A stretch of DNA of 64,000 nucleotides from an uncultured Rhodobacterales bacterium (GTDB lineage: Bacteria > Pseudomonadota > Alphaproteobacteria > Rhodobacterales > CAZPXZ01). Under the pieces are notes generated by a model that worked only from the letters and a program-made list of their open reading frames with translations, was not told the DNA's origin and did no database searches. Positions within the stretch are counted from its first letter, which is position 1. The number at the start of each line of letters is the position of its first letter. The position numbers and the translations under genes are program-made. Shown one piece after another: positions 22,311-36,056 of the stretch. The DNA is taken from positions 257 to 64,256 of the forward strand of contig CAZPIN010000242.1 in assembly GCA_964586735.1 (NCBI GenBank), written 5' to 3'.

Positions 22311-23894
22311 ATGAAAGCGTCCTACGACTTCATTGTCGTTGGCGGCGGGTCGGCGGGCGCGGTGGTGGCCGCCCGGCTTTCCGAGGATCCAAGGATCGAG
22401 GTGCTGCTGGTCGAGGCGGGCGGAGCGGGACGGCATCCGCTCTATCACCTGCCCGCAGGATTCGCCAAGATGACCAAGGGCATCGGCAGCTGGGGATGGA
22501 GCACCGTGCCCCAGAGGCACATGCAGGACCGGGTGTTTCGCTACACGCAGGCCAAGGTGCTGGGCGGGGGGTCCACCATCAACGCCCAGATCTACACGCG
22601 AGGCAATCCGCTGGACTACGACGGATGGCGGCAGACGGGATGCGAGGGATGGAGCTACGGGGACGTGCTGCCGTATTTCCGCCGGGCTGAGGACAACGAC
22701 ACCTACGAGAACCGCTACCACGGCAAAGGCGGACCGCTGGGCGTCAGCCAGCCCGCCGCGCCGCTGCCGGTCTGCGAGGCGTTTTTCGAGGCGGCGGAGT
22801 CGCTGGGATTGCCGCGCAACGAGGACGTCAACGGCGAGCGGCAGGACGGAGTCGCCTACTACCAGCTGACGCAGCGGCGGGCCCGGCGGTCATCGACGGC
22901 AACCGCCTACATCGCGTCCGCCAGACGGCGGCCGAATCTGACGGTACGCGCCGATTTGCAGGTACGGCGAGTGCTGGTTGAGGGAGAGCGGGCCCGCGGC
23001 ATCGAGACGGCTGACGGCGGCAAGTACGAGGCCAACAGCGAGGTCATCCTGTCATGCGGGGCCATCGGAACGCCGCGGCTGCTGCAGCTGTCGGGCGTGG
23101 GACCGGCGGAGGACCTGGCCGCGCTGGGTATCCCGGTGGCGCTGGACCGTCCGCAGGTAGGCGCCAATCTCCAGGACCATCTGGACCTGTACTGCATCGT
23201 CGAGCTGTCCGGGCCACACAGCTACGACCGCTACGCCAGGCCCCTATGGGCGGCGATGGCCGGGCTGCGCTATCTGCTGACGAGGACGGGACCCGTGGCG
23301 TCGTCGCTGTTTGAGACGGGAGGCTTCTGGTACGCCGACCCCGGCGCCGCCTCCCCTGACCTCCAGATGCACCTGGGGCTTGGCACCGGCATCGAGTTTG
23401 GCGTGGCCGACATGCCGCAGGGGGGCGTTACGCTGAACTCCTGCTATCTGCGGCCGCGGTCGCGGGGCACGGTGCGTCTGGGCAGCGCCGACCTGGCGTC
23501 CCCTCCCCTGATCAACCCCAACTATCTGGAGGATCCGCGCGACCGCGCCATGTCCATCGAGGGGCTGAAGCTGACCCAGCGAATCATGGCGGCCGAGCCC
23601 CTGCGGCGGTTTGTGCGGGCGGAGCGCCTGCCGGGGCCCGACGTGCGGAGCGATGAGGAGTACTACGACTACATCTGCCAGCACTCCAAGACATCGCATC
23701 ACTGCGCCGGCACATGCCGCATGGGGGCGGACGCGGAGGCGGTGGTGGACAGCAGGCTGCGGTTCAACGGAATCGCCGGGCTGCGGGTGGTGGACAACTC
23801 GGTCATGCCGACGGTGATTTCGTCCAACACCAACGCGGCGGCGATCATGATTGGCGAGAAGGCCGCCGACATGATCCGCGAAGACCACGCCTGA
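22311..23894 (+). CDS. GMC-family FAD oxidoreductase (choline-dehydrogenase-like)
   Basis: 'YDFIVVGGGSAGAVVAARLSE' and C-terminal 'HHCAGTCRMG'. Confidence 0.9.
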   Translation: MKASYDFIVVGGGSAGAVVAARLSEDPRIEVLLVEAGGAGRHPLYHLPAGFAKMTKGIGSWGWSTVPQRHMQDRVFRYTQAKVLGGGSTINAQIYTRGNPLDYDGWRQTGCEGWSYGDVLPYFRRAEDNDTYENRYHGKGGPLGVSQPAAPLPVCEAFFEAAESLGLPRNEDVNGERQDGVAYYQLTQRRARRSSTATAYIASARRRPNLTVRADLQVRRVLVEGERARGIETADGGKYEANSEVILSCGAIGTPRLLQLSGVGPAEDLAALGIPVALDRPQVGANLQDHLDLYCIVELSGPHSYDRYARPLWAAMAGLRYLLTRTGPVASSLFETGGFWYADPGAASPDLQMHLGLGTGIEFGVADMPQGGVTLNSCYLRPRSRGTVRLGSADLASPPLINPNYLEDPRDRAMSIEGLKLTQRIMAAEPLRRFVRAERLPGPDVRSDEEYYDYICQHSKTSHHCAGTCRMGADAEAVVDSRLRFNGIAGLRVVDNSVMPTVISSNTNAAAIMIGEKAADMIREDHA

Positions 23895-23904
23895 GGAGCG
23901 GAGC

Positions 23905-24993
23905 GTGGCAGGCAAGAAGACAGCAGCGGCAGCCCGAGGCAACGCGGCGGAAAGAAACGGCAACGGGCGGCAGCAGGCAGACGCAAACCGGCGGCCGACC
24001 ATCATCGACGTGGCCGAACGGGCCGGCGTGTCCAAGTCCACCGTGAGCCTGGTGCTGCAGAACTCGACGTCGGTGCGCGGGACGACCCGCAGCAAGGTGC
24101 AGAAGGCGGCGGCCGACATCGGCTACGTCTACAACCGCACGGCGGCGAAGATGCGTCTGGCCAACGCCGGGCTGGTGGGGCTGGTGATCAACGACCTGCG
24201 CAACCCGTTTTTTACCGAGCTTGCCGCGTCCCTGCAGATGGCACTGTCGGCGCGGGGCTACGCAGTGGTGCTGGCCAACACCGACGAGAACGCCAAGGCC
24301 CAGGAGGCGACGGTGGGCAGCATGATCGAGCACGGGGTGTCGGCGTTTGTCATATCGCCGGCCTACGGAAAGGTGAGGAAAACCTTCGACGCGATGGCCC
24401 GCGCCTCTCTGCCCGTCATGCAGGTCATGAGGAAAGCGGACAGCAGAACCAGGCGGTTTCCCTTCGCGGCGCCCGACTACGTGAACGGCGGAAAGATCGC
24501 CGCCCGCCACCTGCTTGACCAGGGAGCCAGGCGGATCGCAATCGTGGGCGGCGTAGAGGGGCGCGGAGTCACCAAGGAGCGCATGGCCGGGTATCTGGAA
24601 GCGCTGGAGGAAACGGGGATTGAGCCGTTGGTGATGGCGGGAGAGCCAAGCAGGGTATACGGGCGGCGGGCGGCTGCCAGGCTGGCAGTCGAGTATCCGG
24701 ACTGCGATGGAGTGCTGTGTTTCAACGATCTTGTGGCTTTGGGACTGCTGGCCGGACGCCTGCAGCTTGGACCGGACGCCGGCAGGCATATCAAGGTCGT
24801 CGGCTTTGACGGCATCGAGGAAGCCGAGAGTTCCTGCCCTCCCCTCACCACTGTACGGTGCGGAGTCGAGGAATTTGGACAGCAGGTAGCACAGACCGTG
24901 CTGGACTGGCTTGAGAACGGCATCCTGCCGCCGGGCGAGAGGCGGCAGCCCGTTACCCTCGATGTGCGGGAGTCGAGTCAGACAGGATGCTGA
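23905..24993 (+). CDS. LacI-family transcriptional regulator
   Basis: 'TIIDVAERAGVSKSTVSLVLQN' HTH, followed by a periplasmic-binding-like fold. GTG start as drawn. Confidence 0.85.
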   Translation: MAGKKTAAAARGNAAERNGNGRQQADANRRPTIIDVAERAGVSKSTVSLVLQNSTSVRGTTRSKVQKAAADIGYVYNRTAAKMRLANAGLVGLVINDLRNPFFTELAASLQMALSARGYAVVLANTDENAKAQEATVGSMIEHGVSAFVISPAYGKVRKTFDAMARASLPVMQVMRKADSRTRRFPFAAPDYVNGGKIAARHLLDQGARRIAIVGGVEGRGVTKERMAGYLEALEETGIEPLVMAGEPSRVYGRRAAARLAVEYPDCDGVLCFNDLVALGLLAGRLQLGPDAGRHIKVVGFDGIEEAESSCPPLTTVRCGVEEFGQQVAQTVLDWLENGILPPGERRQPVTLDVRESSQTGC

Positions 24994-25025
24994 CGCGGGC
25001 GGGGTATCTGGCAGGGCGGCTTGCT

Positions 25026-25440
25026 TGATGCGATTCTTGGCGAATGTGCCGTTTAGTATTATATTCTGCGGGAATCGTATCGAATGGCCTAGACAGTTTT
25101 GCACTCCGGCGACAATGGGAGACAGTCTGTGGCCTTGATGCTGGGGAGTGGAGCCAGGCAGGTGCTGAACATGGATACGGGCACTGACCGAGTGCCGTAT
25201 TCGATACGATTCTTGTCGAATGTACCGTTTGGTGTTATATTCAGCGGGAATCGTATCTGATGATCCAAGCAATCCTGCACCTTGGCGGCGAAGACCGGAG
25301 CCTGTACCCTGTGGTGGGCAACAAGTGCGGCAGAGTGCTGAAACGGGCATGGTCTCCAACTGAGCGCCGTATCTGTTATAGTTCTTGCCAGATGCGCCGT
25401 TTGGTGTTATATTCGACATGAATCGTATCGCCAAGGCTAG
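25026..25440 (+). repeat. Three tandem ~172-176-bp promoter-operator-leader units of the AbiE cassette (units A, B, C)
   Basis: The -35/-10 pairs are TTGGCG/TATATT (25037/25060), TTGTCG/TATATT (25213/25236) and TTGCCA/TATATT (25385/25408), each with a 17-nt spacer. The 52-nt cores of A and B differ at about 6 positions by eye. Unit B is flanked by the inverted repeat GATACGATTC (25203-25212) / GAATCGTATC (25248-25257). Confidence 0.75.
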
Positions 25441-25493
25441 CAGTGCAACCCTCTGGCGACGAGTTGCGGCAAAGTCATCGAGGACTGCTACCC

Positions 25494-26276
25494 ATGCGAG
25501 CCAGACAGTATATTGACGAACTAGCGTCCAGGGGCAGGCATCACTTCACTACTGCCGCCGCCATTGAGGCGTTCGGCGGAAGCGAAGGCGCTGCGCGGTC
25601 CAAGCTTCGGCGCTTGAACAAGCAGGGGCGTATAGCCAGCCCTATGCGCTCGTTTCATGTCATCGTTCCTCCGGAATACCGCCGTTATGGCTGCCTGCCT
25701 GCCGAACACATCATCGACCAGATTATGGGGATGCTGGATACTCCGTATTACGTAGCGCTGCTATCTGCGGCGGAAAAGCATGGAGTCGCCAATCAGCGGC
25801 CACAGGCGCTGCAGGTGATGGTTCCCGTCAACCGGCCCAATATCATATGCGGCAAAACGCGTATCAGGTTCATTGCGCGCAAAGACCTCGAGCGAATGCC
25901 AATTGTCAAATTCAATACTCCCCACGGGTACATCAACTACTCGACGCCCGAAGCGACCGCACTGGAACTGGTAGGCTATCCGCGGCACTCCGGCGGATTT
26001 AGCAGCGTAAGAACAGTCTTGACTGAACTGGGCAAAGGGATCAATCCCCAGAAGCTGGTTGAAGCCGCCAAACTGTGCCCTGTTGGCTGGTCGCAGCGCC
26101 TCGGCTATCTGCTGGAATTTACGGAGTTACCGGAGCTCACGACTGCCATCGAATCCTTCGTACGCGACCACGCAAACAGCTACATCTCGCTCCACAGCGG
26201 TCAATCGACCGTAGGCGCCAAGCGAAACGGGCGATGGAAGGTCATCGTAAACCACGAGGCTGATCCAGGCTTGTGA
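25494..26276 (+). CDS. abiEi: AbiEi-family antitoxin/transcriptional regulator (copy 1)
   Basis: 'MRARQYIDELASRGRHHFTTAAAIEAFGGSEGAARSKLRRLNKQGRIASPMRSFHVIV' is the AbiEi wHTH N-terminus. It is roughly 70% identical by eye to copy 2. ORF 25443.. trimmed to ATG 25494. Confidence 0.75.
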   Translation: MRARQYIDELASRGRHHFTTAAAIEAFGGSEGAARSKLRRLNKQGRIASPMRSFHVIVPPEYRRYGCLPAEHIIDQIMGMLDTPYYVALLSAAEKHGVANQRPQALQVMVPVNRPNIICGKTRIRFIARKDLERMPIVKFNTPHGYINYSTPEATALELVGYPRHSGGFSSVRTVLTELGKGINPQKLVEAAKLCPVGWSQRLGYLLEFTELPELTTAIESFVRDHANSYISLHSGQSTVGAKRNGRWKVIVNHEADPGL

Positions 26277-26480
26277 TGTCCAAGGGTTGCATCGACGACT
26301 GACGGACCAGCGCTGCCTGGCGACTGGATGTCCAGATCGAGCAAGACCGGGTACTGAGTCGCGCCAACCCTGCGATGGCCCAATGTCTGGGACTGTGGAG
26401 CGGACAGCATTACGCGACGGCACGGTACCTCCATAGGCCGCATCTTCGTTCCCCTTCTATCCACCTCAGGGCAAGTACCT
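26276..26480 (+). pseudogene. Decayed 5' fragment of an AbiEii toxin gene
   Basis: Nucleotide alignment with 27708-27915 holds for about 200 nt ('atgtccaagggttgcatcgacgacTGAcggaccagcgctgcctgg' vs 'atgatttccaaggactgcattgataagtggcggacccgcgctccctgg'). There is an in-frame TGA at codon 9, and homology is lost after about 26480. Confidence 0.65.
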
Positions 26481-26780
26481 TCATCCGGCGCCGACACTCC
26501 GCCAGTTCGCGGCGGCGAGGATAGTGATGGCAGAAACGGTCGCCCGGAGCCAGAATGGAGGGGCGCCAAGTCAGCGACGTGCCGCGCCACAATGGCGTGA
26601 TGTACCGTCTGTACCGTCTAGTATGAATGGAGGGCAGGCGAGACCACGTCTACGGCTTCAGCTGGTTTTGCGACCTGCTGCGGTACTGGCATGGCTGGTC
26701 AACGGCAACGGATGCGCAAGGGTGCACCCCGCCGCACAGCGACGGCTGCTCCATGCCAGAGCATCCAGCAGGACTGGGGC

Positions 26781-26808
26781 TTGACATCACTGCTGAGTGT
26801 GCTATGTT
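26781..26808 (+). promoter_or_regulatory. Additional strong sigma70-like promoter upstream of AbiE unit D
   Basis: TTGACA (26781-26786), a 16-nt spacer, then TATGTT (26803-26808). The corresponding positions in units A and B are degenerate. Confidence 0.4.
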
Positions 26809-26819
26809 GGTGGTAGTAC

Positions 26820-26848
26820 TTGGCGGATACACCTCTTGGTGTCATATT
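26820..26848 (+). promoter_or_regulatory. AbiE unit D promoter (fourth copy of the repeated promoter-leader)
   Basis: TTGGCG, a 17-nt spacer, then CATATT, followed by 'gaatcgtatcgcc' and the leader 'gcaacccttggcggcgaac', as in unit C. Confidence 0.5.
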
Positions 26849-26928
26849 CGGCAAGAATCGTATCGCCTAGGATAGCCAACGCAACCCTTGGCGGCGAACT
26901 GCGGCAGGACCATCGAGAGTAGCCGCTC

Positions 26929-27711
26929 ATGCGAGCTGAACAATACATCGACGACCTGGCGGCCAGCGGCAGGGGGCACTTCACGACTGCCGCCGCCATG
27001 GAGGCAATCGGTGGAAGCGAAGACGCTGTGCGGGCCCAGATTCGGCGCCTGAACCAGCGGGGGCTGGTTGCCAGTCCCATGCGCTCGTTTCACGTTATCC
27101 TTCATCCGGTATACCGGCGTTATGGCTGCGTGCCTGCTGAGTACTTCATCGACCAGCTCATGGAGACGCTGGGCACTCCGTACTACCTAGCGCTCCTTTC
27201 GGCGGCGGAACAGCATGGGGCCGCCCATCAGCGGCCGCAGGTGATGCAGGTGATGGTACCCGATAGTCGCCCCAGCATTAAATGCGGTAAAACTGTTATT
27301 CGATTCATCGTGCGCAGCGACCTCGAACGAATGCCAATTGTCAAGATCAATTCACCCTACGGGTGCATCAAGTACGCAACCCCCGAATTGACTGCGCTGG
27401 AATTGGTGGGCTACCCGCGACGTGCCTGTGGAATGGACAACGTGGCGACAATCCTGATTGAACTGGGCGAAGAGATCGACCCCAAAATGCTGCTTGAGGC
27501 CGCCAAACTATGCCCTGTTGGCTGGTCACAGCGTCTTGGCTACCTGCTGGAATTCACAGGGTGGCCAGAGCTAGCGGCTGCCATCGAGCCCTTTGTACGA
27601 GACCGCGCAAACAGCTACATTCCTCTGCGCCGCTCCCAAGCGACTGCAGGAGGCAAACGTGACACACGATGGAAAGTCATCGTAAACCACGATGTGGATC
27701 CAGACTTATGA
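26929..27711 (+). CDS. abiEi: AbiEi-family antitoxin/transcriptional regulator (copy 2)
   Basis: 260 aa, a paralog of copy 1. Its stop overlaps the abiEii start (ATGA). Confidence 0.8.
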   Translation: MRAEQYIDDLAASGRGHFTTAAAMEAIGGSEDAVRAQIRRLNQRGLVASPMRSFHVILHPVYRRYGCVPAEYFIDQLMETLGTPYYLALLSAAEQHGAAHQRPQVMQVMVPDSRPSIKCGKTVIRFIVRSDLERMPIVKINSPYGCIKYATPELTALELVGYPRRACGMDNVATILIELGEEIDPKMLLEAAKLCPVGWSQRLGYLLEFTGWPELAAAIEPFVRDRANSYIPLRRSQATAGGKRDTRWKVIVNHDVDPDL

Positions 27712-28544
27712 TTTCCAAGGACTGCATTGATAAGTGGCGGACCCGCGCTCCCTGGCAACGGGATACCATGGTCGAGCAGGACCTTGTCCTGAGTCGCGCC
27801 CTTGTTGCGATGTACTCGGTGCCCGAGATCGCTGAGCGGATAGCATTCCGCGGCGGGACGGCACTGCATAAGCTGCATCTCCGCTTCCCTGCTCGCTACT
27901 CGGAGGACATCGACCTCGTCCAGATTCGGCCAGAACCAATTGGCAAGACCATTGACCTTATACGAACTGCTCTGGATCCTTTGCTTGGCACGCCTAGGCG
28001 CATGTTCAAAGAGGGACGCATCGTCCTCCTATATCGATTCTACTCTGAGGGTCCACGCCCCAAGAAGCTGCGGCTGAAGATCGAGATCAATTCCCGCGAG
28101 CACTTCACGGTGCTTGGCCATACCAAAATCCAGTATTCTGTTGAGAACCCATGGTTTTCGGGCTCCGCCAGCGTCACCACATATACCATCAACGAGATAA
28201 TGGGATCAAAGCTTTGTGCGCTCTTTCAGAGAAAAAAGGGCCGAGACCTCTTCGACGTCGCTCTCGCACTCTCTCAAAAGCTGGTCGACACGCAAATTCT
28301 GCTGCGGTGCTTCAAGCGGTTCAGGGAAGAGGGGGGAGACGCGGTTACTCGCGCGCAGTTTGAGGCAAACCTCCATCACAAGTCCAACGATGAGGAATTT
28401 CGCGATGGTGTTGTCGAGCTACTCGAACCAGACGCTTCATGGGATTTCGATGATGCCATGCGCCTGGTACTCGACGAGATCGCCCCGCTGCTGCCCGGCG
28501 AGCCGTGGAAGGGCGAAGCAGACGATGACAACGGACAATTGTGA
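27708..28544 (+). CDS. abiEii: AbiEii/AbiGii-family nucleotidyltransferase toxin (DUF1814)
   Basis: 'AFRGGTALHKLHLRFPARYSEDIDLVQ' is the NTase GG..L / S.DiDl motif. ORF 27669.. trimmed to ATG 27708. Confidence 0.8.
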   Translation: MISKDCIDKWRTRAPWQRDTMVEQDLVLSRALVAMYSVPEIAERIAFRGGTALHKLHLRFPARYSEDIDLVQIRPEPIGKTIDLIRTALDPLLGTPRRMFKEGRIVLLYRFYSEGPRPKKLRLKIEINSREHFTVLGHTKIQYSVENPWFSGSASVTTYTINEIMGSKLCALFQRKKGRDLFDVALALSQKLVDTQILLRCFKRFREEGGDAVTRAQFEANLHHKSNDEEFRDGVVELLEPDASWDFDDAMRLVLDEIAPLLPGEPWKGEADDDNGQL

Positions 28545-28722
28545 GATTGCGCGCGTATCCTTGACGCATCCGCTGAGATGATGGGCGGGTTCGTCTGCCG
28601 GCCCCAGAGTATCACCAGCTGCGCCCGCCGGCACTCTTCCCTCTCCTCGTGCCGCAGTGAGGTCTCACTCCAGCAGTTGGAGGGGAGATGCCGTGCTTTG
28701 GTGTTGACAGGGTGCCAGTACG

Positions 28723-31700
28723 CTAGAACCCCAACCTGCCCTCCAGGCGGATCGTATGGTCCGGAAGCTCCTCTGCGCCTTCCTCGCGCTGCCCATAGAG
28801 GTCGAAGCGCAGCTGGCCAATACCCGCGTCTACCCTGCGCAGCTCAGTGCCAAGACGCAGCGAGCGATCCTCGTCTGCCTGTCCCGCCTCGCCATAGACC
28901 GTCGCCAGCGCCCATTCGCCAAGCATTCCGGCACCGTAGCCGAGGCGAATCTGTATGGCACCGCCGCCATCCGCAGTGCCAGCGGAATCGGTTACGGATT
29001 TGGCGGAGGACGCCCACAGGGTGTCGCCGTCCCCTGAAAGCGACGCGTTCCATGTGGGCTTCAGGGACATCTGGAGACCGCGTCCTCCCTCGCTGGCCGC
29101 GTATTCCAGCCCAAAGCCGAGACTCCACTGCTTGAATTCTTCATCCTCATGAGCGAGCAGTGCGCTACCACCGCCTCTGAACGAGAGGCCCCGGTCCGGC
29201 GCGATGAAGCCGAACTGCATCGACACCTCCGCCCCAATGCCCTTCTCCGCATCGCCGCCGTCGACGCGTCCGCCGATGCCCATTCTCGTTATGACGGAAG
29301 CGCCAGTGGTCATCGCCCGCTTCGACTCGCGCTCTACTGCAGCGCGCATCCGGTACGAGTTCACATCTATCTTCTCCAGCGTAATTTCATCATCAAGCCC
29401 GTCAGAGGATACTGACGTGAGGAATATGTCGGCTCGCATCGACAGGCCGGAGCCTTCGTTTTCAGTGACGAGGCCGTTGCGCAGGCCGGCCGCTACGGTC
29501 TGGGTGTCAATGTCCGTCTCCAGCTCCGCCCGGTCATCTTCGGAATTGGTGGTCCCTGTACCAGCGCTATAAGCCCCCCAAACCATGCTGTTGCCATCCT
29601 CGGACACGACGTGGACGTAGGGCGTGACGCTGGCGACGCTGGTCGTTACTTCGCCGTTGCCAAGGCCGGCGCCGGCAAACTGATACTCCATCTGGCTTTC
29701 CTTGCGGCTGAACGCAACGCCCAGCATGAAGCGGTTCCTGCGGAAGCCAAGGCCGAGGTGGCTGGAGCTGACTTCGTTCTCATAGTCGAAGGCGCCAAAG
29801 TTGTCATCCGCGAAACCGCCCTCCCCTGACAAGCGGCCTGCTCCTCCCCAGAAGAGGAAAGAGGAACCGCCGTCAGACTGGCCATCCAGAGACAGCGCAA
29901 ACCGGCTTTGGTCCTGGAGGTCGCGAATACTGGGAACGTTTGCCCACTGCCTGTAGGAGTCGAAGCCGCCGCCGGAAACCTGGCTGTACTCCGAATCGAG
30001 ATGGGCTCCATACGGGGCGGCAACCTCGACGCCAAAGAAGCTGGCGATTTCCTTCGCAGCCTGACCGCCGCCAGCTCCAGCCGCCAGCGCTTTGGCACTG
30101 ACCGCGTGTCCACCCAGCACGACGCTGTCGCTGTTGCTATAGGCATGCATATCTGCGATGCTCCAAAGCTCGTCGACGACGCTAGCAGCGAACGAGCGAC
30201 TGGCGCTTGCCAAGACGTAGGAAAGCCCCCTCGCTCGGGGGTCGACAACCCGCACCGAAGTCTCGGCTGACACAACCGTTCTCCCGCTGTCCGTCGCATT
30301 TGGTTCCGCTGGCTGGATTGCCAAGTCCCCTCTCAGAACGCTAGCGCCAGTATCCCTGCGCTTGGGCCGCTCAAACTCGATGGATACAGAACCAGCTATC
30401 CTGCCATCAACCTCGAAACTCTGGGGCACCAGGTTGGTTCCCCTATAGACGGTTACTTCGCCGCTCTCTTCGCCAGTGGCACGGACTCCAGCGCTTCGCG
30501 CCGTGCCTCCCGCTGCCCCGGCCACGTCAGCGGTCGTGTAGCTCGCCCTCCACAGGACGGTCACGTCATAGTCCAGCGCCGGATACACCGCCACCTGAAA
30601 GTCGACCTTGGAGTTGGAGTCGGAATCCGTGCTAGCCCTCAGCGACCTGACGGAAAGGACCGACTGCCCCGGAGCCTCCGAAATCACGCCTTGACCGACT
30701 GCGTCTCCATCGCGATAGACTGCGCTCTCCGACTGGTTGAAAAGGGCAATCTCGACAGTCTCGCCGTAGCCCTCGGCGATGAAGTCAAGCTCGGTGGAAA
30801 GCACGATGTTTCTCGACGAAATGTCCGGTGTGAACAGCAGCCGGCCATCAGTCGCCGAGCCACTGTCAGACCGACTGGTAGTGTCCAAGAAGTCGGCGAC
30901 CGAGGCTGCCGTGCCGCCAGATACGCTGTAATCCACGGAGACTGTCCGCGCGGTGCCAGGACTCCGCGTCAGCGTAACGACAAAGACGAGATCCTGGCCC
31001 TCCACCGTCTGCGCATCGGTAATCGTCAGCGCGTCAGGGGAAGCGTCGTTATCGCGGATGACACCTAATGCTGCTGCCGCCTGAAGAGTCACGCTTCCCG
31101 ACACCACTCGCGTCAAGAGAATCTCAACGGTTTCGTTGTCTTCCAACTCCGCATCGTCCACCGTCCTCAGCGTCAGAGTAGCCGAAGTCTGCCCTGCCCC
31201 TATGGAAAAGCTGTCCGTAAGGCTGTCCAGGAAAAAGTCTCCTGCTTCGATACCTATGCCTGTAATCCTGTATCCGACTTCGATATTCGCACGGCTTTGT
31301 TCATTCAGCGATATGTCAAAAGTCAGGGTACCGCCTTCGTCTACCGGATCAGCATTGGCAATTGCCAAGGTGGGCGATTCGCCGGGGACCGGCGTCGAGG
31401 CGGGCATCTGATCGTTATCGCGAATGACGCCGGTCGCCGCCTGTCTTTGAAGCGTCACGTTTCCGGACAGCACCCTCGTCAAGCGTACCTGAATGGTCTT
31501 GTCCCGCTCCGCGACCGCATCGTCCCGCAGCGCCAGTTCCAGAGTCGCCGCGGCCCGATTGGCAGGGATGGTTATCGTACCCGTTAGGGCTGGCGTAAGC
31601 GGCGTGCTGAAGTCCGCTGCATCGACTCCCGCGCCGGATACGGCGTACTCTATCTCGGTATCCTGAAGGACCGGAATGCTGAGTGACACGCTGAATACCA

Positions 31701-34700
31701 GGGACCGGCCCTCTGGCACTGCAGGGGCATTGGAAATTATCGCAGCTGGCGGTGCAACAACGGGGGGAGGCAGACCATCATCGTCACGGACGACGACGGC
31801 TGCGCTAGACGGCGTGCCAAACGTATAGCTGGTATGGCTTTGAATGGTCAGCAGCACGGTGGAGTAGGGCTCGTCATCCTCATCCTGCGGCGCTAAAAGG
31901 CTCACCAGCACGGTGTTGGCGCCAGCAGCCATGGTCACGCTCGTACGGGTGGCATCGGCTGCGCTCAGTACGCCACTCTGGTCGTCGATAGTGAACCTCA
32001 CCGTCAGAGCGCCCGTAGCCAAGCCCGTGCGTCTTATTTCAAACACGGCGTTATCGCCCTCGCCAATGAAGGAGCTTTGCGCCACAACTGTAACCTCGGA
32101 TGGGCCTTCCGGAAGAACTTCTGTAGTGGCATCGCTTGGTATCCTTTCCTCAAAGCCCAAATCGTCATTAAAGATCAGCACGATGCGGATCAGCTTGCCC
32201 TGGTCCGCCGCAACCAGCGTATAGGAGAGGCTGCCGTCACCGATATTTTCAGGAGTCGGATCGGTTGCGCTGTCCAACCGCTGCCACTGGTAGGCGTCTA
32301 CCGCCATGACCCTGCCATTGGCGTCGGCTATGTTTGACGGCGTAGCGGTCAGAGTACGGCCAACTTCGACTGTTCCGGCTATTGTCAGAGTGCCCGTGGC
32401 GGGGGTGTTCATAATATCGCCGATTGCGCCAGTTGGGTCGCTTGCAATCGTTTCCTCAGTGCCTAAATCGTCAGTAAAGGTTAGCACGATACGGATCAGC
32501 TTGCCTTGGTCCGCCGCAACCAGCGTGTAGGTAAGGCTTCCGTCGCCGATGTCGTCAGGACTCGTGTCGGCGGCATCGTCCAGGCGCTGCCACTGATAAC
32601 TGTCAGCCGCCCTGGTCCTTCCGTCAGCGTCCGCTATGTTTGATGGCGTGGCGGTCAGGGTTTGGCCAACCTCCTCCGTACCGGTGATTGTCAGCGTGCC
32701 TGTGGCGGGGTTGTTCGTAAGCTCGCCGATGGCGCCCGTGAGAGAGCTTGTGATCGTTTCATTGAAGTCATCATCGTCCGTGAAGGTCAGAACAATGCGG
32801 ATTAGCTTGCCTTCATCCGCCGCGACCAGCGTGTAGGTAAGGCTTCCGTCGCCGATATCTTCAGGAGTCGTGTCGGCAGCATCGTCTAGGCGCTGCCACT
32901 GGTAGCTGTCTACTGCCCCGATCCTCCCGTTTCTGTCCGCTATGCTTACTGGCGTGGCGGTCAGGGTTTGGCCCACCTCCTCCGTGCCGGATATTGTCAG
33001 CATGCCAGAGGCGGGGTGTTCTGGAATCACCACGGGGCCGATCCAGTAGCTTTCTTTCACCTCCGGGTTGCCCTCGTCGTCTTCAAACTCAACCGTCACA
33101 CGGATGTATTTGTCAACCTCTGCCTGTGTAAGCGTGTAGGAAGCGTCCGTTGCGCCAGCAATGTCCACCCCCACAGTGGCAGTACGGGTGTCGGCGGTCT
33201 GCCACTGATACTGGTAGGCGACCGGGAGCGTCAGCCCATCTACAGGGTCATCGATGTTGACCGCTGAAGATATTAAAGTCTCGCCTCTCTCTGGGCTCCT
33301 GTCAATACTTGGATCACCTAGATAGCGGCTTATATTCAGATTGCCCTCGGCTGGAGCGTCGTTCTCCGCTACGGGGCCTTGCCAGCCGCTTACTGCCCTT
33401 TCCTGGGTGTTTTCGTCGTCGGTATATACCAATTCCGCCTGAACAAAACAGTTCTCGTCCTCGTTTTGCAGCCGATAGCTAGGATTGCTCGAACTTTCAA
33501 TTCTTTGCTTGTTCGTGCCGACGTTGTCCTCTGCGCAAAAGAACTCGTACCTAAAGCCTCGCCCAAACTTGTCTGTCATGCCATTTGGATCGCTGACCTC
33601 GTTTCGATTTATAGTCAAAAGTTCTCCATTACGAAGCGTTCCAGTAAGTAAATTCGCCCCAACTGTGGGTGCCACGTTGACATCCAATACCACCGGGGAC
33701 AGCGCGCTGGAGAGCACCGTCTGGTCTCCGCGGCCGTCGGTGACAGTAACCGCGGCAACCAGCTTACCGCCTGGCACCGTAATCGCGCCGTCCATAGCCG
33801 GGAGCGTTATGGTTGATCCACTAAGGGACGGCAGTAGAACTGCTCCTGTATCCGTAGTGGGATCTGTGACGGCTGTTGCGGATTCGGGGTATCTGTAGTA
33901 CGAAAACACCCACCGGCTCGTATCGGTACGGTCGCCTTCCAGCCCGTCATCGTCCATAAAACCCGATGTAACAACGGTGACATCCGTTCCTACCCTGAAA
34001 CCTACGGTAGAAGTGAAACTAAATGTCGGCGTACCCGTGGTGGGAAGGTTGGGGAGTTCAAGCACCGGCCCCGCCCAATCGCTCATTATTACCTCGGAAT
34101 TGCCAAAATTGTCGGTAAATGAAAGGGTTACTCGAAAGTACTTGCCAACATCACCTTCTACCAACAAGAAAGTAAGCGCAGTTGAATGATCTGATGCATC
34201 CGAGCCCTGATCATCATCCGCTCTTTCCCACCTATAGGTAAAGCCCAAGAAAGGATTAGGAAGTCCATTTTCGTCTACAACATCATCAAAGTCCGGTACC
34301 ATACTTGCTCCGACTTGTATCGGAGGCTGAGGTTGCCCCCGCGGCCTGCCAGTAGTAGCGACCAATTCACCTGTGACTGGGGTATTGCCCGTTCCCAGGA
34401 TCCTGATGGAAAGCGACCTCATGTCGTCTGCTTCCGCTCCCGTCCAGTAGCCGTCGCCCGTCCCAGCATCGGCGTTGTTGGGATTTCCATTTACATACCC
34501 ACTTAAGCTCCAGCTAGTAAGTCCCGTGGTAACCTGGTCTCTTTTTCTTTGCCACGTAACGCTGGTACTGCCTGTCGGCTGTGCCGGGGTGTGCCCCAGT
34601 TCAATGTAGTATGTGGTATTCGCTGTAAGTGTGGTGCTGGCGGGAGCGGTAAACTTGTTCCATGCATTCGCAGTAAGGGTTGGGTTCGTCAGCGTTACCG

Positions 34701-35010
34701 CCCCTGTCGTCGTCGGGGCACTCGAGGCTTGCGGCAAGAGCCGTACCTGTGTGGTGCCGTCGGCAGGCACAGCAGTAAAATACAGCTCTACCGAGGTAAG
34801 CGTATAGTCGTGGCCTCCCGTAGTAAACTCCTGCGCAAACCAATTTGTTCTGGTTATGGTTTTCCCGCCCTGTGTTGTAGCCCCGCTATTGTCAAGGATC
34901 GTGTATTCGGTCTGCGCCTGCACCGCGGAGGGTGCTGTCATCCCCGCCGCCGCTAGCATCATCCCCGCCATCCAGGCGCATACCGCCGCCCGAAGCGGTC
35001 CGTGCGCCAC
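28723..35010 (-). CDS. Giant autotransporter-type surface protein: signal peptide, N-terminal domain, ~7 beta-sandwich-like ~100-aa modules, 4-5 Calx-beta domains, C-terminal beta-barrel
   Basis: The ORF runs to 35238. The probable start is GTG 35010 (or ATG 34971), just before the signal peptide 'MAGMMLAAAGMTAPSAVQAQ'. Calx-beta-like units end in '..VVRDDD' / '..VIRDND'. The C-terminus ends '...IRLEGRLGF' (aromatic terminal residue) with alternating beta-strand pattern. Confidence 0.8.
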   Translation of the reverse strand: MAHGPLRAAVCAWMAGMMLAAAGMTAPSAVQAQTEYTILDNSGATTQGGKTITRTNWFAQEFTTGGHDYTLTSVELYFTAVPADGTTQVRLLPQASSAPTTTGAVTLTNPTLTANAWNKFTAPASTTLTANTTYYIELGHTPAQPTGSTSVTWQRKRDQVTTGLTSWSLSGYVNGNPNNADAGTGDGYWTGAEADDMRSLSIRILGTGNTPVTGELVATTGRPRGQPQPPIQVGASMVPDFDDVVDENGLPNPFLGFTYRWERADDDQGSDASDHSTALTFLLVEGDVGKYFRVTLSFTDNFGNSEVIMSDWAGPVLELPNLPTTGTPTFSFTSTVGFRVGTDVTVVTSGFMDDDGLEGDRTDTSRWVFSYYRYPESATAVTDPTTDTGAVLLPSLSGSTITLPAMDGAITVPGGKLVAAVTVTDGRGDQTVLSSALSPVVLDVNVAPTVGANLLTGTLRNGELLTINRNEVSDPNGMTDKFGRGFRYEFFCAEDNVGTNKQRIESSSNPSYRLQNEDENCFVQAELVYTDDENTQERAVSGWQGPVAENDAPAEGNLNISRYLGDPSIDRSPERGETLISSAVNIDDPVDGLTLPVAYQYQWQTADTRTATVGVDIAGATDASYTLTQAEVDKYIRVTVEFEDDEGNPEVKESYWIGPVVIPEHPASGMLTISGTEEVGQTLTATPVSIADRNGRIGAVDSYQWQRLDDAADTTPEDIGDGSLTYTLVAADEGKLIRIVLTFTDDDDFNETITSSLTGAIGELTNNPATGTLTITGTEEVGQTLTATPSNIADADGRTRAADSYQWQRLDDAADTSPDDIGDGSLTYTLVAADQGKLIRIVLTFTDDLGTEETIASDPTGAIGDIMNTPATGTLTIAGTVEVGRTLTATPSNIADANGRVMAVDAYQWQRLDSATDPTPENIGDGSLSYTLVAADQGKLIRIVLIFNDDLGFEERIPSDATTEVLPEGPSEVTVVAQSSFIGEGDNAVFEIRRTGLATGALTVRFTIDDQSGVLSAADATRTSVTMAAGANTVLVSLLAPQDEDDEPYSTVLLTIQSHTSYTFGTPSSAAVVVRDDDGLPPPVVAPPAAIISNAPAVPEGRSLVFSVSLSIPVLQDTEIEYAVSGAGVDAADFSTPLTPALTGTITIPANRAAATLELALRDDAVAERDKTIQVRLTRVLSGNVTLQRQAATGVIRDNDQMPASTPVPGESPTLAIANADPVDEGGTLTFDISLNEQSRANIEVGYRITGIGIEAGDFFLDSLTDSFSIGAGQTSATLTLRTVDDAELEDNETVEILLTRVVSGSVTLQAAAALGVIRDNDASPDALTITDAQTVEGQDLVFVVTLTRSPGTARTVSVDYSVSGGTAASVADFLDTTSRSDSGSATDGRLLFTPDISSRNIVLSTELDFIAEGYGETVEIALFNQSESAVYRDGDAVGQGVISEAPGQSVLSVRSLRASTDSDSNSKVDFQVAVYPALDYDVTVLWRASYTTADVAGAAGGTARSAGVRATGEESGEVTVYRGTNLVPQSFEVDGRIAGSVSIEFERPKRRDTGASVLRGDLAIQPAEPNATDSGRTVVSAETSVRVVDPRARGLSYVLASASRSFAASVVDELWSIADMHAYSNSDSVVLGGHAVSAKALAAGAGGGQAAKEIASFFGVEVAAPYGAHLDSEYSQVSGGGFDSYRQWANVPSIRDLQDQSRFALSLDGQSDGGSSFLFWGGAGRLSGEGGFADDNFGAFDYENEVSSSHLGLGFRRNRFMLGVAFSRKESQMEYQFAGAGLGNGEVTTSVASVTPYVHVVSEDGNSMVWGAYSAGTGTTNSEDDRAELETDIDTQTVAAGLRNGLVTENEGSGLSMRADIFLTSVSSDGLDDEITLEKIDVNSYRMRAAVERESKRAMTTGASVITRMGIGGRVDGGDAEKGIGAEVSMQFGFIAPDRGLSFRGGGSALLAHEDEEFKQWSLGFGLEYAASEGGRGLQMSLKPTWNASLSGDGDTLWASSAKSVTDSAGTADGGGAIQIRLGYGAGMLGEWALATVYGEAGQADEDRSLRLGTELRRVDAGIGQLRFDLYGQREEGAEELPDHTIRLEGRLGF
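32108..33020 (-). repeat. Three in-frame 306-bp tandem repeats inside the autotransporter gene
   Basis: The 'GKLIRIVL'-coding segments lie at 32177-32206, 32482-32511 and 32788-32817, a 305-306 bp period. Protein units read 'GTLTI.GTEEVGQTLTATPSNIAD.DGR...DSYQWQRLDDAADT.P.DIGDGSLTYTLVAAD.GKLIRIVLTFTDD'. Confidence 0.85.
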
Positions 35011-36056
35011 CGCCTGATTCCGCCTTCCTTCGCCCGTATCCAGCCCTAGTCGGCTGCGGCTGCGGCTGACGTCCCCCCGCGCTATCCACCCGTTCTGCCG
35101 TCGCCAGCAAGCTGCGATTCCCGCTGCCTTACGTACCAGGCCGCCTCGCAGCCCCTGTCCAGTCGAGGCGGGCTCGTTCGTCCCTCCGATGCCGCCGCCC
35201 GCCCCATGGGCACCAGCGCATACCCGTACTGCGTTCATACCGATGCTCTCCTGTCGGCCTTTACGCCTCGTTCCGACATTGGCCCGCTGCCCCCTTCCCC
35301 TTCCTCAAGCAAGGCTGGGCGGCTTCGAGTCCGTATGCGTGCGTGGAGCCGTACGACCGTTTCGGTCGCACGTCCCCCTCCAGCGCAAGCGCTACGCGCC
35401 TCCGCCGCATCTACACTAGCAACTCTTTGCGCCCATGCCAAGTCCCCCGTCGCTCGCGATGTCAATGCCCTTCGGCGGCGGCTGGCCCGTACCGCGCTGC
35501 GGCGTTCCCGCCCGTCCATCCGCCCAGACGGCTGACGTACAGTGGACACGTCGCCACGGCGCTCGACACCGCTAAGGCACCAACCATCCCGGGAGACTCT
35601 GCCATCGAGGCGGTCTCCGCCAGCCTCTCTCGGCTCCTGTGTGTATAGCCGTAGCATAACCCTTCCTTCCTCCGCCGGCGATGCCCGCATCTCCCTTGCC
35701 CAGCGCTCTGGCATGGCATTGCCCTCCTTCCGCCCGACCGTCGCGGGCGTGCCCAAACCGCCGCCTTCACGCTTGCCGCCAACATCCGCTCCCGTAGCAC
35801 GCGTCTCCCGCGCAGAGCCACCGTCCCCGCTTGCGCAGGCACCGCTACCCTGTCCCGCGTCCAAACGCGCTCTCCGGTACGCGTTACTAGTGGCTTGCGC
35901 GCCCAGTGGCATCTTCCCGCGACGCCGCAGGATACTGCGAGCCTTGCCGGTCCGCACGGCCACTGGCAGCCGCTATGCTTGGCGGATAGGCGACGGCGAC
36001 CGGACCGGCAATCTCAAATTCCGGCACCCCGACCCCGCGCAAACGGAGAAACCAAG

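Follow-up and report, generated by a model that had tools for sequence, protein, structure and literature searches.

Two additional predicted AbiEi promoter-operator units upstream of an abiEi gene, apparently duplicated in tandem with a lacI 3' end in an uncultured Rhodobacterales bacterium

The closest described relatives of the control region examined here come from Mycobacterium tuberculosis and Streptococcus agalactiae. In the M. tuberculosis promoter Prv2827c, 23-bp repeats form two pairs between -1 and -131, with a 13-bp gap in each pair and 4 bp between the pairs, and Rv2827c binds as one monomer per repeat with affinities set by the consensus match (Beck et al. 2020, PMC7319586). In S. 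agalactiae, AbiEi binds the inverted repeats IR1-IR2 of its promoter PabiE and exerts negative autoregulation (Dy et al. 2014, PMC3985639; AbiEi and PabiE are also the subject of Hampton et al. 2018, as cited in PMC7319586). We analysed a 64,000-nucleotide stretch of an uncultured Rhodobacterales genome (assembly GCA_964586735.1, contig CAZPIN010000242.1, positions 257 to 64,256), hereafter the window, which carries two abiE cassettes downstream of a lacI-family gene. Three head-to-tail units, A, B, and C, precede abiEi of cassette 1 (abiEi-1), and a fourth, D, precedes abiEi of cassette 2 (abiEi-2). An AbiE type IV toxin-antitoxin locus and a Prv2827c-like operator are already known kinds; new at this locus is the loss of the gene-proximal repeat pair together with a tripled distal module that carries lacI relics. 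We consider it reasonably likely that A and B are in-place tandem duplicates of the distal module, and that A, B, and C would be three AbiEi-repressible promoters reading through into abiEi-1.

Alignment and a promoter scan bore out the original prediction of three direct units with a 172- to 176-bp period, each containing a -35 element, a 17-nt spacer, TATATT, and the repeat. The period was 176 bp from A to B and 172 bp from B to C. A (25027-25200) runs through its tail into B (25203-25372), which runs through its own tail into C (25375-25493), followed by abiEi-1 with its ATG at 25494. A and B could be aligned end to end, and the predicted fourth unit, D (26810-26928, in front of abiEi-2), aligned with C (26814-26935 with 25379-25500). 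Tandem Repeats Finder did not report the array, its copies being too diverged. The features are as follows:

23905..24993, + strand: LacI-family regulator gene with Pfam LacI, Peripla_BP_1, and Peripla_BP_3 matches; its real start probably lies downstream of 23905
24922..25026, + strand: tail copy 0, made up of the native lacI 3' end and a short spacer directly 5' of core A, delimited by alignments to tails A and B
25027..25082, + strand: unit A core; arms 25027-25048 and 25060-25081; -35 TTGGCG at 25037-25042; -10 TATATT at 25060-25065; position weight matrix (PWM) score 44-51 bits
25083..25202, + strand: leader stub of A, ending near 25112, and behind it tail A, a putative decayed copy of the lacI 3' end
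25203..25258, + strand: unit B core; -35 TTGTCG at 25213-25218; TG-extended -10 TATATT at 25236-25241; PWM score 54-59 bits
25259..25374, + strand: leader stub of B, then tail B, a putative second decayed copy of the lacI 3' end
25375..25430, + strand: unit C core; -35 TTGCCA at 25385-25390; -10 TATATT at 25408-25413; left arm degenerate; PWM score 41-44 bits
25431..25493, + strand: leader of abiEi-1, including a Shine-Dalgarno-like GAGGA; the proximal pair would canonically lie here but is absent
25494..26276, + strand: abiEi-1, intact antitoxin/repressor gene, 260 aa; PF09407, E 1.5e-41
26273..26458, + strand: abiEii-1 pseudogene stub; ATGA overlap with abiEi-1; in-frame stops by tblastn
26810..26865, + strand: unit D core, 5' of abiEi-2; right arm perfect, left arm degenerate; -10 CATATT; PWM score 23-30 bits
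26929..28544, + strand: intact abiE cassette 2, abiEi-2 (26929-27711) plus abiEii-2 (probably 27708-28544, with an ATGA overlap at 27708); PF09407, PF08843

To describe the cores, sigma-70-like sites TTGGCG, TTGTCG, and TTGCCA, each followed by N17-TATATT, were located at 25037-25065, 25213-25241, and 25385-25413; the scan gave four promoter-like sites in the region versus 0.8 expected. In each of A, B, and C, an inverted-repeat pair ending in GAATCGTATC encloses the promoter. A perfect 10-bp inverted repeat had been noticed in B, with degenerate versions in the other units. Both points held (GATACGATTC at 25203-25212 and GAATCGTATC at 25248-25257 in B), but the size had been understated, since each arm is 22 nt long and 11 nt separate the two. 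Of the 22 arm positions, 15 are complementary in A, 17 in B, and 11 in both C and D. All four units therefore have paired 22-nt repeats, separated by 11 nt and enclosing the -35 and -10 elements, in keeping with the promoter-overlapping pairs of ~23-bp repeats with a ~13-bp gap that characterise Prv2827c-type operators. The half-site pattern ATATTCNNCNNGAATCGTATC occurred six times in the 64-kb window, always inside units A to D, with 0.05 occurrences expected from shuffles.

The reference for scoring these sites was a collection of related loci. AbiEi-1 had 4,056 homologous matches, most of them from Myxococcota and other metagenome-assembled genomes; beyond this contig, identity reached about 70% at most. 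A scan of genome contigs returned only a 35%-identical Bacteroidales locus, and a plasmid megablast returned no match. We examined 92 related abiEi loci (L002-L093, 296 kb), 70 of them with a defined start; because near-duplicates are present (97 unique sites of 115), the loci are not all independent samples. They were scanned with TACRATTC-N35-GAATYGTA, allowing up to 3 mismatches, and sites per locus were counted at a PWM threshold of 15 bits. In the 70 loci, the pairs occupy two positions upstream of the ATG, a distal one at -112 to -131 and a proximal one at -55/-56; 41 loci had two pairs, 19 had one, 10 had none, and none had three. The distal pair carries a -35/-10 consensus, TTGcca-N17-TAT.TT, and the proximal pair ends 4 nt 5' of the ATG, its right arm, GGAGAATTGTA, also serving as the ribosome-binding site. 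The modal distance from distal to proximal pair was 63 bp (25 of 43 loci), the same as the 23 + 13 + 23 + 4 bp of Prv2827c. The GAATYGTA half-site core was identical in relatives with 47-68% identity to AbiEi-1, suggesting conserved recognition. Judged by these loci, two TACRATTC-N35-GAATYGTA pairs 63 bp apart are the norm of a large, phylogenetically wide AbiEi_1 subfamily found in many phyla.

Compared with this norm, unit C, at -117 from the abiEi-1 ATG, occupies the canonical distal position. The canonical proximal positions scored -32 bits in cassette 1 and -38 bits in cassette 2, versus 39-69 bits for real sites; by this measure, the gene-proximal pair is lost in both cassettes. Its place is taken by the leader motif gca.cc.tggcg.cga, in which no pair is recognisable and which is similar, too, to GC-rich sequence in the lacI 3' end. 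Instead of exactly two adjacent pairs, the window has additional distal-type pairs 172 and 348 bp further upstream. More than two sites were found in none of the 92 related loci, versus four in the window, and a tripled distal promoter-operator had no second case among these loci and no description in the literature searched.

The predicted operators of A and B equal or surpass those attached to the genes: B is clearly the best by score and A is equal to or slightly above C. With a matrix built from the relatives' sites, B scored 54-59, A 44-51, C 41-44, and D 23-30 bits, and the next best site in the window scored -2 bits. B is close to the family median with a mixed-site matrix and falls within the 25th-50th percentile with a distal-only matrix; D lies below the 5th percentile of family sites. 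The pair of unit B, TACGATTC-N35-GAATCGTA, is the best in the window, and mismatches in the half-site core were 0/16 in B, 1 in A, and 2 in C (in the 8-nt left arm core). In the left arm of D, about half of the core positions are changed, as counted from the sequences, and D falls outside the 3-mismatch scan. Candidate sites for AbiEi-bound inverted repeats in the gene's own promoter are thus present and conserved across the family. The reading of A to D as AbiEi promoter-operator units, which was part of the original prediction, is supported by the pairs at fixed positions in homologous loci and by the Rv2827c/AbiEi-like fold of the predicted protein.

Both AbiEi proteins belong to the AbiEi_1 family (PF09407, E 1.5e-41 for AbiEi-1 and 6.6e-38 for AbiEi-2). 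The two predicted abiEi copies were therefore confirmed, with the start of abiEi-1 corrected from 25495 to 25494. The AlphaFold2 (AF2) model of AbiEi-1 had a pLDDT of 89; its best fold match in the Protein Data Bank (PDB) was 1ZEL, Rv2827c (E 3e-8, TM 0.71), followed by 6Y8Q, S. agalactiae AbiEi (TM 0.41). HMMER searches against PDB sequences, with a single sequence and with a profile, gave no match to AbiEi-1. The likeness to Prv2827c consists of paired repeats of about 22-23 bp with an 11- to 13-bp gap straddling the promoter, and of the repressor fold that Rv2827c and modelled AbiEi-1 appear to share. The window differs in that the proximal pair is lost, the distal pair with its promoter is tripled at 172- to 176-bp spacing, and the extra copies carry a lacI relic; moreover, AbiEi-1 is only about 14% identical to Rv2827c. 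With S. agalactiae, the locus shares an antitoxin with an N-terminal winged helix and predicted negative autoregulation, promoter-overlapping inverted repeats, and, in cassette 2, a bicistronic abiEi-abiEii operon, whereas PabiE has a single pair with a 3-bp gap, a smaller protein, and no multiplication of the module.

The bicistronic arrangement is present in cassette 2, where abiEii-2 matches PF08843 (E 4e-34). In cassette 1, behind units A to C, abiEii-1 is a stub, which starts in the ATGA overlap, meets a stop after 8 codons, and contains further in-frame stops. It is 74% identical to abiEii-2 over 258 nt (blastn), and the homology ends near 26458, at about codon 62 counted from the stub ATG (codon 75 of the open reading frame [ORF] called from 27669). 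Since abiEii-1 is a pseudogene, abiEi-1 is an orphan antitoxin gene. AbiEi-1 and AbiEi-2 are 70% identical, with highly similar N-terminal domains, and the ratio of nonsynonymous to synonymous divergence (dN/dS) between their genes is 0.27, with a dS of 0.64.

The origin of A and B was traced through their tails, which were compared with every neighbouring segment on both strands and matched the 3' end of the lacI-family gene in register. Local alignment placed 25133-25168 of tail A on 24957-24993 (z 6.3) and 25272-25356 of tail B on 24922-25008 (z 4.0); these matches are offset by 175-176 and 348-350 bp, in agreement with unit periods of 176 and 176 + 172 bp. In a three-row alignment, the lacI 3' end before core A corresponds to tail A before core B and to tail B before core C. 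Global alignments of the lacI 3' end with the two tails gave z scores of 4.6 and 5.4. The mutual similarity of the tails reported in the original prediction was also recovered, at 60% identity versus 48% in shuffles (z 6.9). The frame-0 translation of tail A, RRQWETVCGLDAGEWSQAG, recalls the LacI C terminus, RRQPVTLDVRESSQTGC followed by a stop, and the source of the tails comprises the last ~24 codons of lacI plus ~33 nt. No similarity of the tails was detected to abiEi-1, abiEii, the inter-cassette DNA, cassette 2, or the downstream DNA on either strand (z -1.2 to 1.3).

The lacI copy is considered the original because its Peripla_BP_3 match extends to the profile end and its C terminus is conserved in the closest orthologue, on a locus (L095) with 80% amino acid identity in LacI and with the upstream GMC oxidoreductase and ABC-transporter genes also present. 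There, LacI ends in GERRQLVNLDVRESSLTGC and a stop; the DNA beyond is unrelated and holds another two-gene module, with no abiE downstream. At the present locus, the copies run head to tail and include an unrelated flank in the same order and register, as a tandem segmental duplication should. The register of the tails with the lacI 3' end thus identifies A and B as segmental tandem duplicates of the lacI/abiE junction, made in place. As aligned, the repeated unit is the lacI 3' end plus the abiE promoter-operator and early leader, about 175 bp, present three times, and by the same alignments, A and B arose in place after abiE came to adjoin lacI. Where the copies join, lacI (GGGCGAGAGGCGGCAG) and the abiE leader (GGCGGCGAACTGCGGCAG in D) have similar GC-rich sequence, with GGCG.CGA..GCGGCAG in common, and the breakpoint is ambiguous within about 30 nt. 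An independent Logan assembly of the same organism (L094, run SRR16090826) is base-for-base identical from lacI into unit A, as far as window position 25075; the junction of lacI and unit A is therefore not an assembly artefact.

The end of this Logan contig is an observation in its own right. Its positions 2169-2250 correspond to window 24994-25075, and it ends within the right arm of unit A (…GCGGGAAT). As the units have no common 31-mers, a repeat-induced graph break is not expected at this point; low coverage or a copy-number variant could account for it.

Short regulatory segments duplicate head-to-tail via short homologies, giving several same-sense promoters before one gene, and such duplications are usually recent and near-identical. 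The copies in the window, in contrast, are old, with tails ~55-60% identical, yet their cores are kept. Core identities were 88% for A-B, 75% for B-C, 73% for A-C, and 79% for C-D, whereas the tails were 54-60% identical over all columns, optimally aligned shuffles reaching 48%. The contrast between core and tail conservation had a Fisher p of 1.4e-4 for A-B and 1.8e-6 for the pooled units. The cores are 41-45% GC in a window of 63.5% GC. Exact runs common to two units did not exceed 18 nt, which speaks against gene conversion in recent times. Tail divergence was about 0.34 differences per aligned site, or about 0.45 substitutions per site by the Jukes-Cantor correction; this is of the same order as the abiEi dS of 0.64, indicating that the array is old. 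We then simulated neutral decay. At about 0.2 changes per site, the tail-derived rate, and starting from a B-like ancestor or from the A/B/C/D majority, the probability that both copies would score at least as high as A was ≤0.001; at 0.10-0.15 changes per site, a B-like ancestor gave P 0.008-0.08. Collectively, this suggests that the promoter-operator parts of A and B are under purifying selection.

We therefore propose the following course. A ~175-bp segment would have been duplicated in tandem twice, presumably through microhomology at the GC-rich join, to give A and B. The lacI-derived parts would since have decayed almost to background, while the promoter hexamers and AbiEi half-sites of A and B were kept. 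A, B, and C would act as same-sense sigma-70 promoters that all feed abiEi-1, with 5' untranslated regions of ~75, 245, and 420 nt; as the tails contain no terminator-like site, abiEi-1 would be transcribed from three tandem promoters. Each promoter would be covered by an inverted-repeat pair binding two AbiEi monomers, by analogy with experimental results on Rv2827c and S. agalactiae AbiEi, and both AbiEi-1 and the 70%-identical AbiEi-2 may repress promoters A to C. Compared with a single unit, the array would raise the maximum antitoxin output and add four monomer sites while keeping negative feedback. The result would be a self-repressed antitoxin supply of higher capacity whose own toxin is dead and whose extra operators soak up repressor; the supply from abiEi-1 may cover the intact neighbouring toxin AbiEii-2.

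Several points weigh against this reading of the array as three working promoters. Promoter and operator activity is predicted from consensus matches and from homology to experimentally studied systems whose proteins are only 13-15% identical. The spacings of 176 and 172 bp are not whole helical turns, unlike the 63 bp of the family, and for this reason no cooperative contacts between units are proposed. The array is known from one genome. With a near-optimal ancestral site, simulated decay is not significant (P 0.26-0.94), and the contrast between cores and tails could stem from older gene conversion confined to the cores. Furthermore, the similarities of the 56-nt cores (A-B 88%, C-D 79%, A/B-C 73-75%) and those of the tails yield no single clean order of duplication.

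Some of these points favour the view that A and B are neutral leftovers, non-functional by-products of duplication that are decaying and owe their scores to a strong ancestor, to chance, or to past gene conversion. An array confined to one genome and found in none of 92 related loci, scores reproduced by decay from a near-optimal ancestor, spacing without helical phasing, and conflicting core and tail trees are all as this view would have it. On the other hand, the cores are far better kept than their own tails (p 1e-4 to 2e-6), A and B hold the family half-sites better than C and D, AT-rich cores persist in a GC-rich genome with no long identical tracts, and copies whose tail divergence is comparable to the abiEi dS are old yet intact. 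We regard neutral persistence as unlikely on balance, though it has to be taken seriously.

Another view, whose decoy form the original prediction had already offered and with which the high site scores of A and B are compatible, would keep the operators but make the promoters minor: A and B might serve mainly as high-affinity AbiEi sites, either a repressor sink (decoy) or remote auxiliary operators for the promoter of unit C, and so raise the antitoxin level or sharpen its control. In its favour, B is the best site and A is at least equal to C, only four such sites exist in the 64-kb window, the left arm of C is weak, and neither cassette has a proximal pair; the dependence of affinity on consensus match, with one monomer per repeat, is as described for Rv2827c (PMC7319586). 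Nevertheless, the -35 element, the 17-nt spacer, and TATATT are kept in all three units and are not obviously needed for binding, though the hexamers overlap the arms, and two extra pairs on a single-copy chromosome amount to four monomer sites, a small sink. A mainly operator role is thus rather improbable.

The original prediction had also suggested that A and B drive discrete noncoding RNAs (ncRNAs) of ~110 nt, to which small tail-encoded proteins may be added. Each unit does have a promoter-like site, two 47-aa ORFs (25044-25187 and 25220-25363) lie in the same register in A and B and begin M[CY]RLVLYSAGIVS…, and the two-sequence RNAalifold consensus of the tails (-20.7 kcal/mol) contains 6 compensated pairs. 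However, this consensus did not stand out from column shuffles (p 0.16 for its energy, 0.30 for its compensatory pairs). Folding z scores were -0.7 for tail A and +1.1 for tail B (-0.9 and +0.8 on the other strand), with structures that differ between the two. Terminator-like sites were absent from the tails, the only matches in the array overlapping the -35/spacer of units A and C, and Rfam gave no match at E≤1. The tails therefore show neither the family membership nor the stable or conserved fold of a structured ncRNA, and they are the least conserved part of the unit. The 47-aa ORFs, which have no counterpart in unit C, have in common only 13 residues encoded by the promoter core and the LacI relic frame, begin inside the -35 region, 5' of their own unit's predicted transcription start, and are probably spurious; neither the small ORFs nor a 529-aa antisense ORF (23845-25434) had a Pfam match. 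An RNA or peptide role is accordingly very improbable. The remaining suggestion of the original prediction, that A and B are what gene deletion left of former abiE cassettes, is hardly credible, since despite decay elsewhere at the locus (the abiEii-1 stub), the tails lack cassette similarity on either strand and match the lacI 3' end in register.

If the three-promoter reading is correct, it may be carried one step further, though only tentatively and with a low expectation that it applies. The array could be a selected device: once the toxin of cassette 1 was gone, the module might have been amplified and abiEi-1 thereby made a high-gain, self-limiting orphan antitoxin gene that restrains a poorly self-regulated cassette 2 and perhaps confers immunity against incoming abiE elements, A and B being both promoters and a repressor buffer. 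Cassette 2 is called poorly self-regulated because, although intact, it has the weakest predicted operator (D) and no proximal pair.

Further observations concern the surroundings of the array. Just 5' of unit D, 26781-26808 holds a better sigma-70 match than the weaker CATATT of D itself, TTGACA-N16-TATGTT (TG-extended, 10/12), which may be a replacement or extra promoter of cassette 2 outside the AbiEi operator. The 351 bp between the abiEii-1 stub and unit D (26459-26809) showed no detectable similarity to cassette 2, the tails, or any Pfam family. AbiEi-2 has 81% identity with P0005, a protein encoded on a separate 22-kb NCBI contig, above its 70% identity to AbiEi-1; the two cassettes may therefore not be a simple local duplication, and either an old duplication was followed by spread or each cassette was acquired separately. 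The abiE island is 54-59% GC versus 62-70% in the flanks. Downstream of abiEii-2 lie a 185-aa plus-strand ORF (28578-29135) with no Pfam match and, overlapping it with its 5' part, a giant minus-strand ORF (28723-35238, 2171 aa) whose product has Calx-beta and IG_AIR9 domains; some cassette relatives (L002-L005) have a HipA_2 (PF20613) gene in the place of the 185-aa ORF. In the slot that corresponds to 24994-28722, the locus of the closest lacI orthologue (L095, 7105-9450) has, on the minus strand, a 216-aa protein and an AAA_15/AAA_21 ATPase instead of abiE. The slot between the lacI-family gene and the giant minus-strand protein looks like a defence-gene hotspot.

For the family, the comparison makes the two-pair layout of Prv2827c the norm across the AbiEi_1 subfamily. 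For this locus, if A and B are inert, the array is merely a decaying duplication in a defence-gene hotspot. If they are active, nature would here have amplified and kept the control region of a toxin-antitoxin/abortive-infection system and not its genes, and the ready set of one, two, and three copies could serve to test how antitoxin level and response speed depend on the number of copies of a self-repressed promoter.

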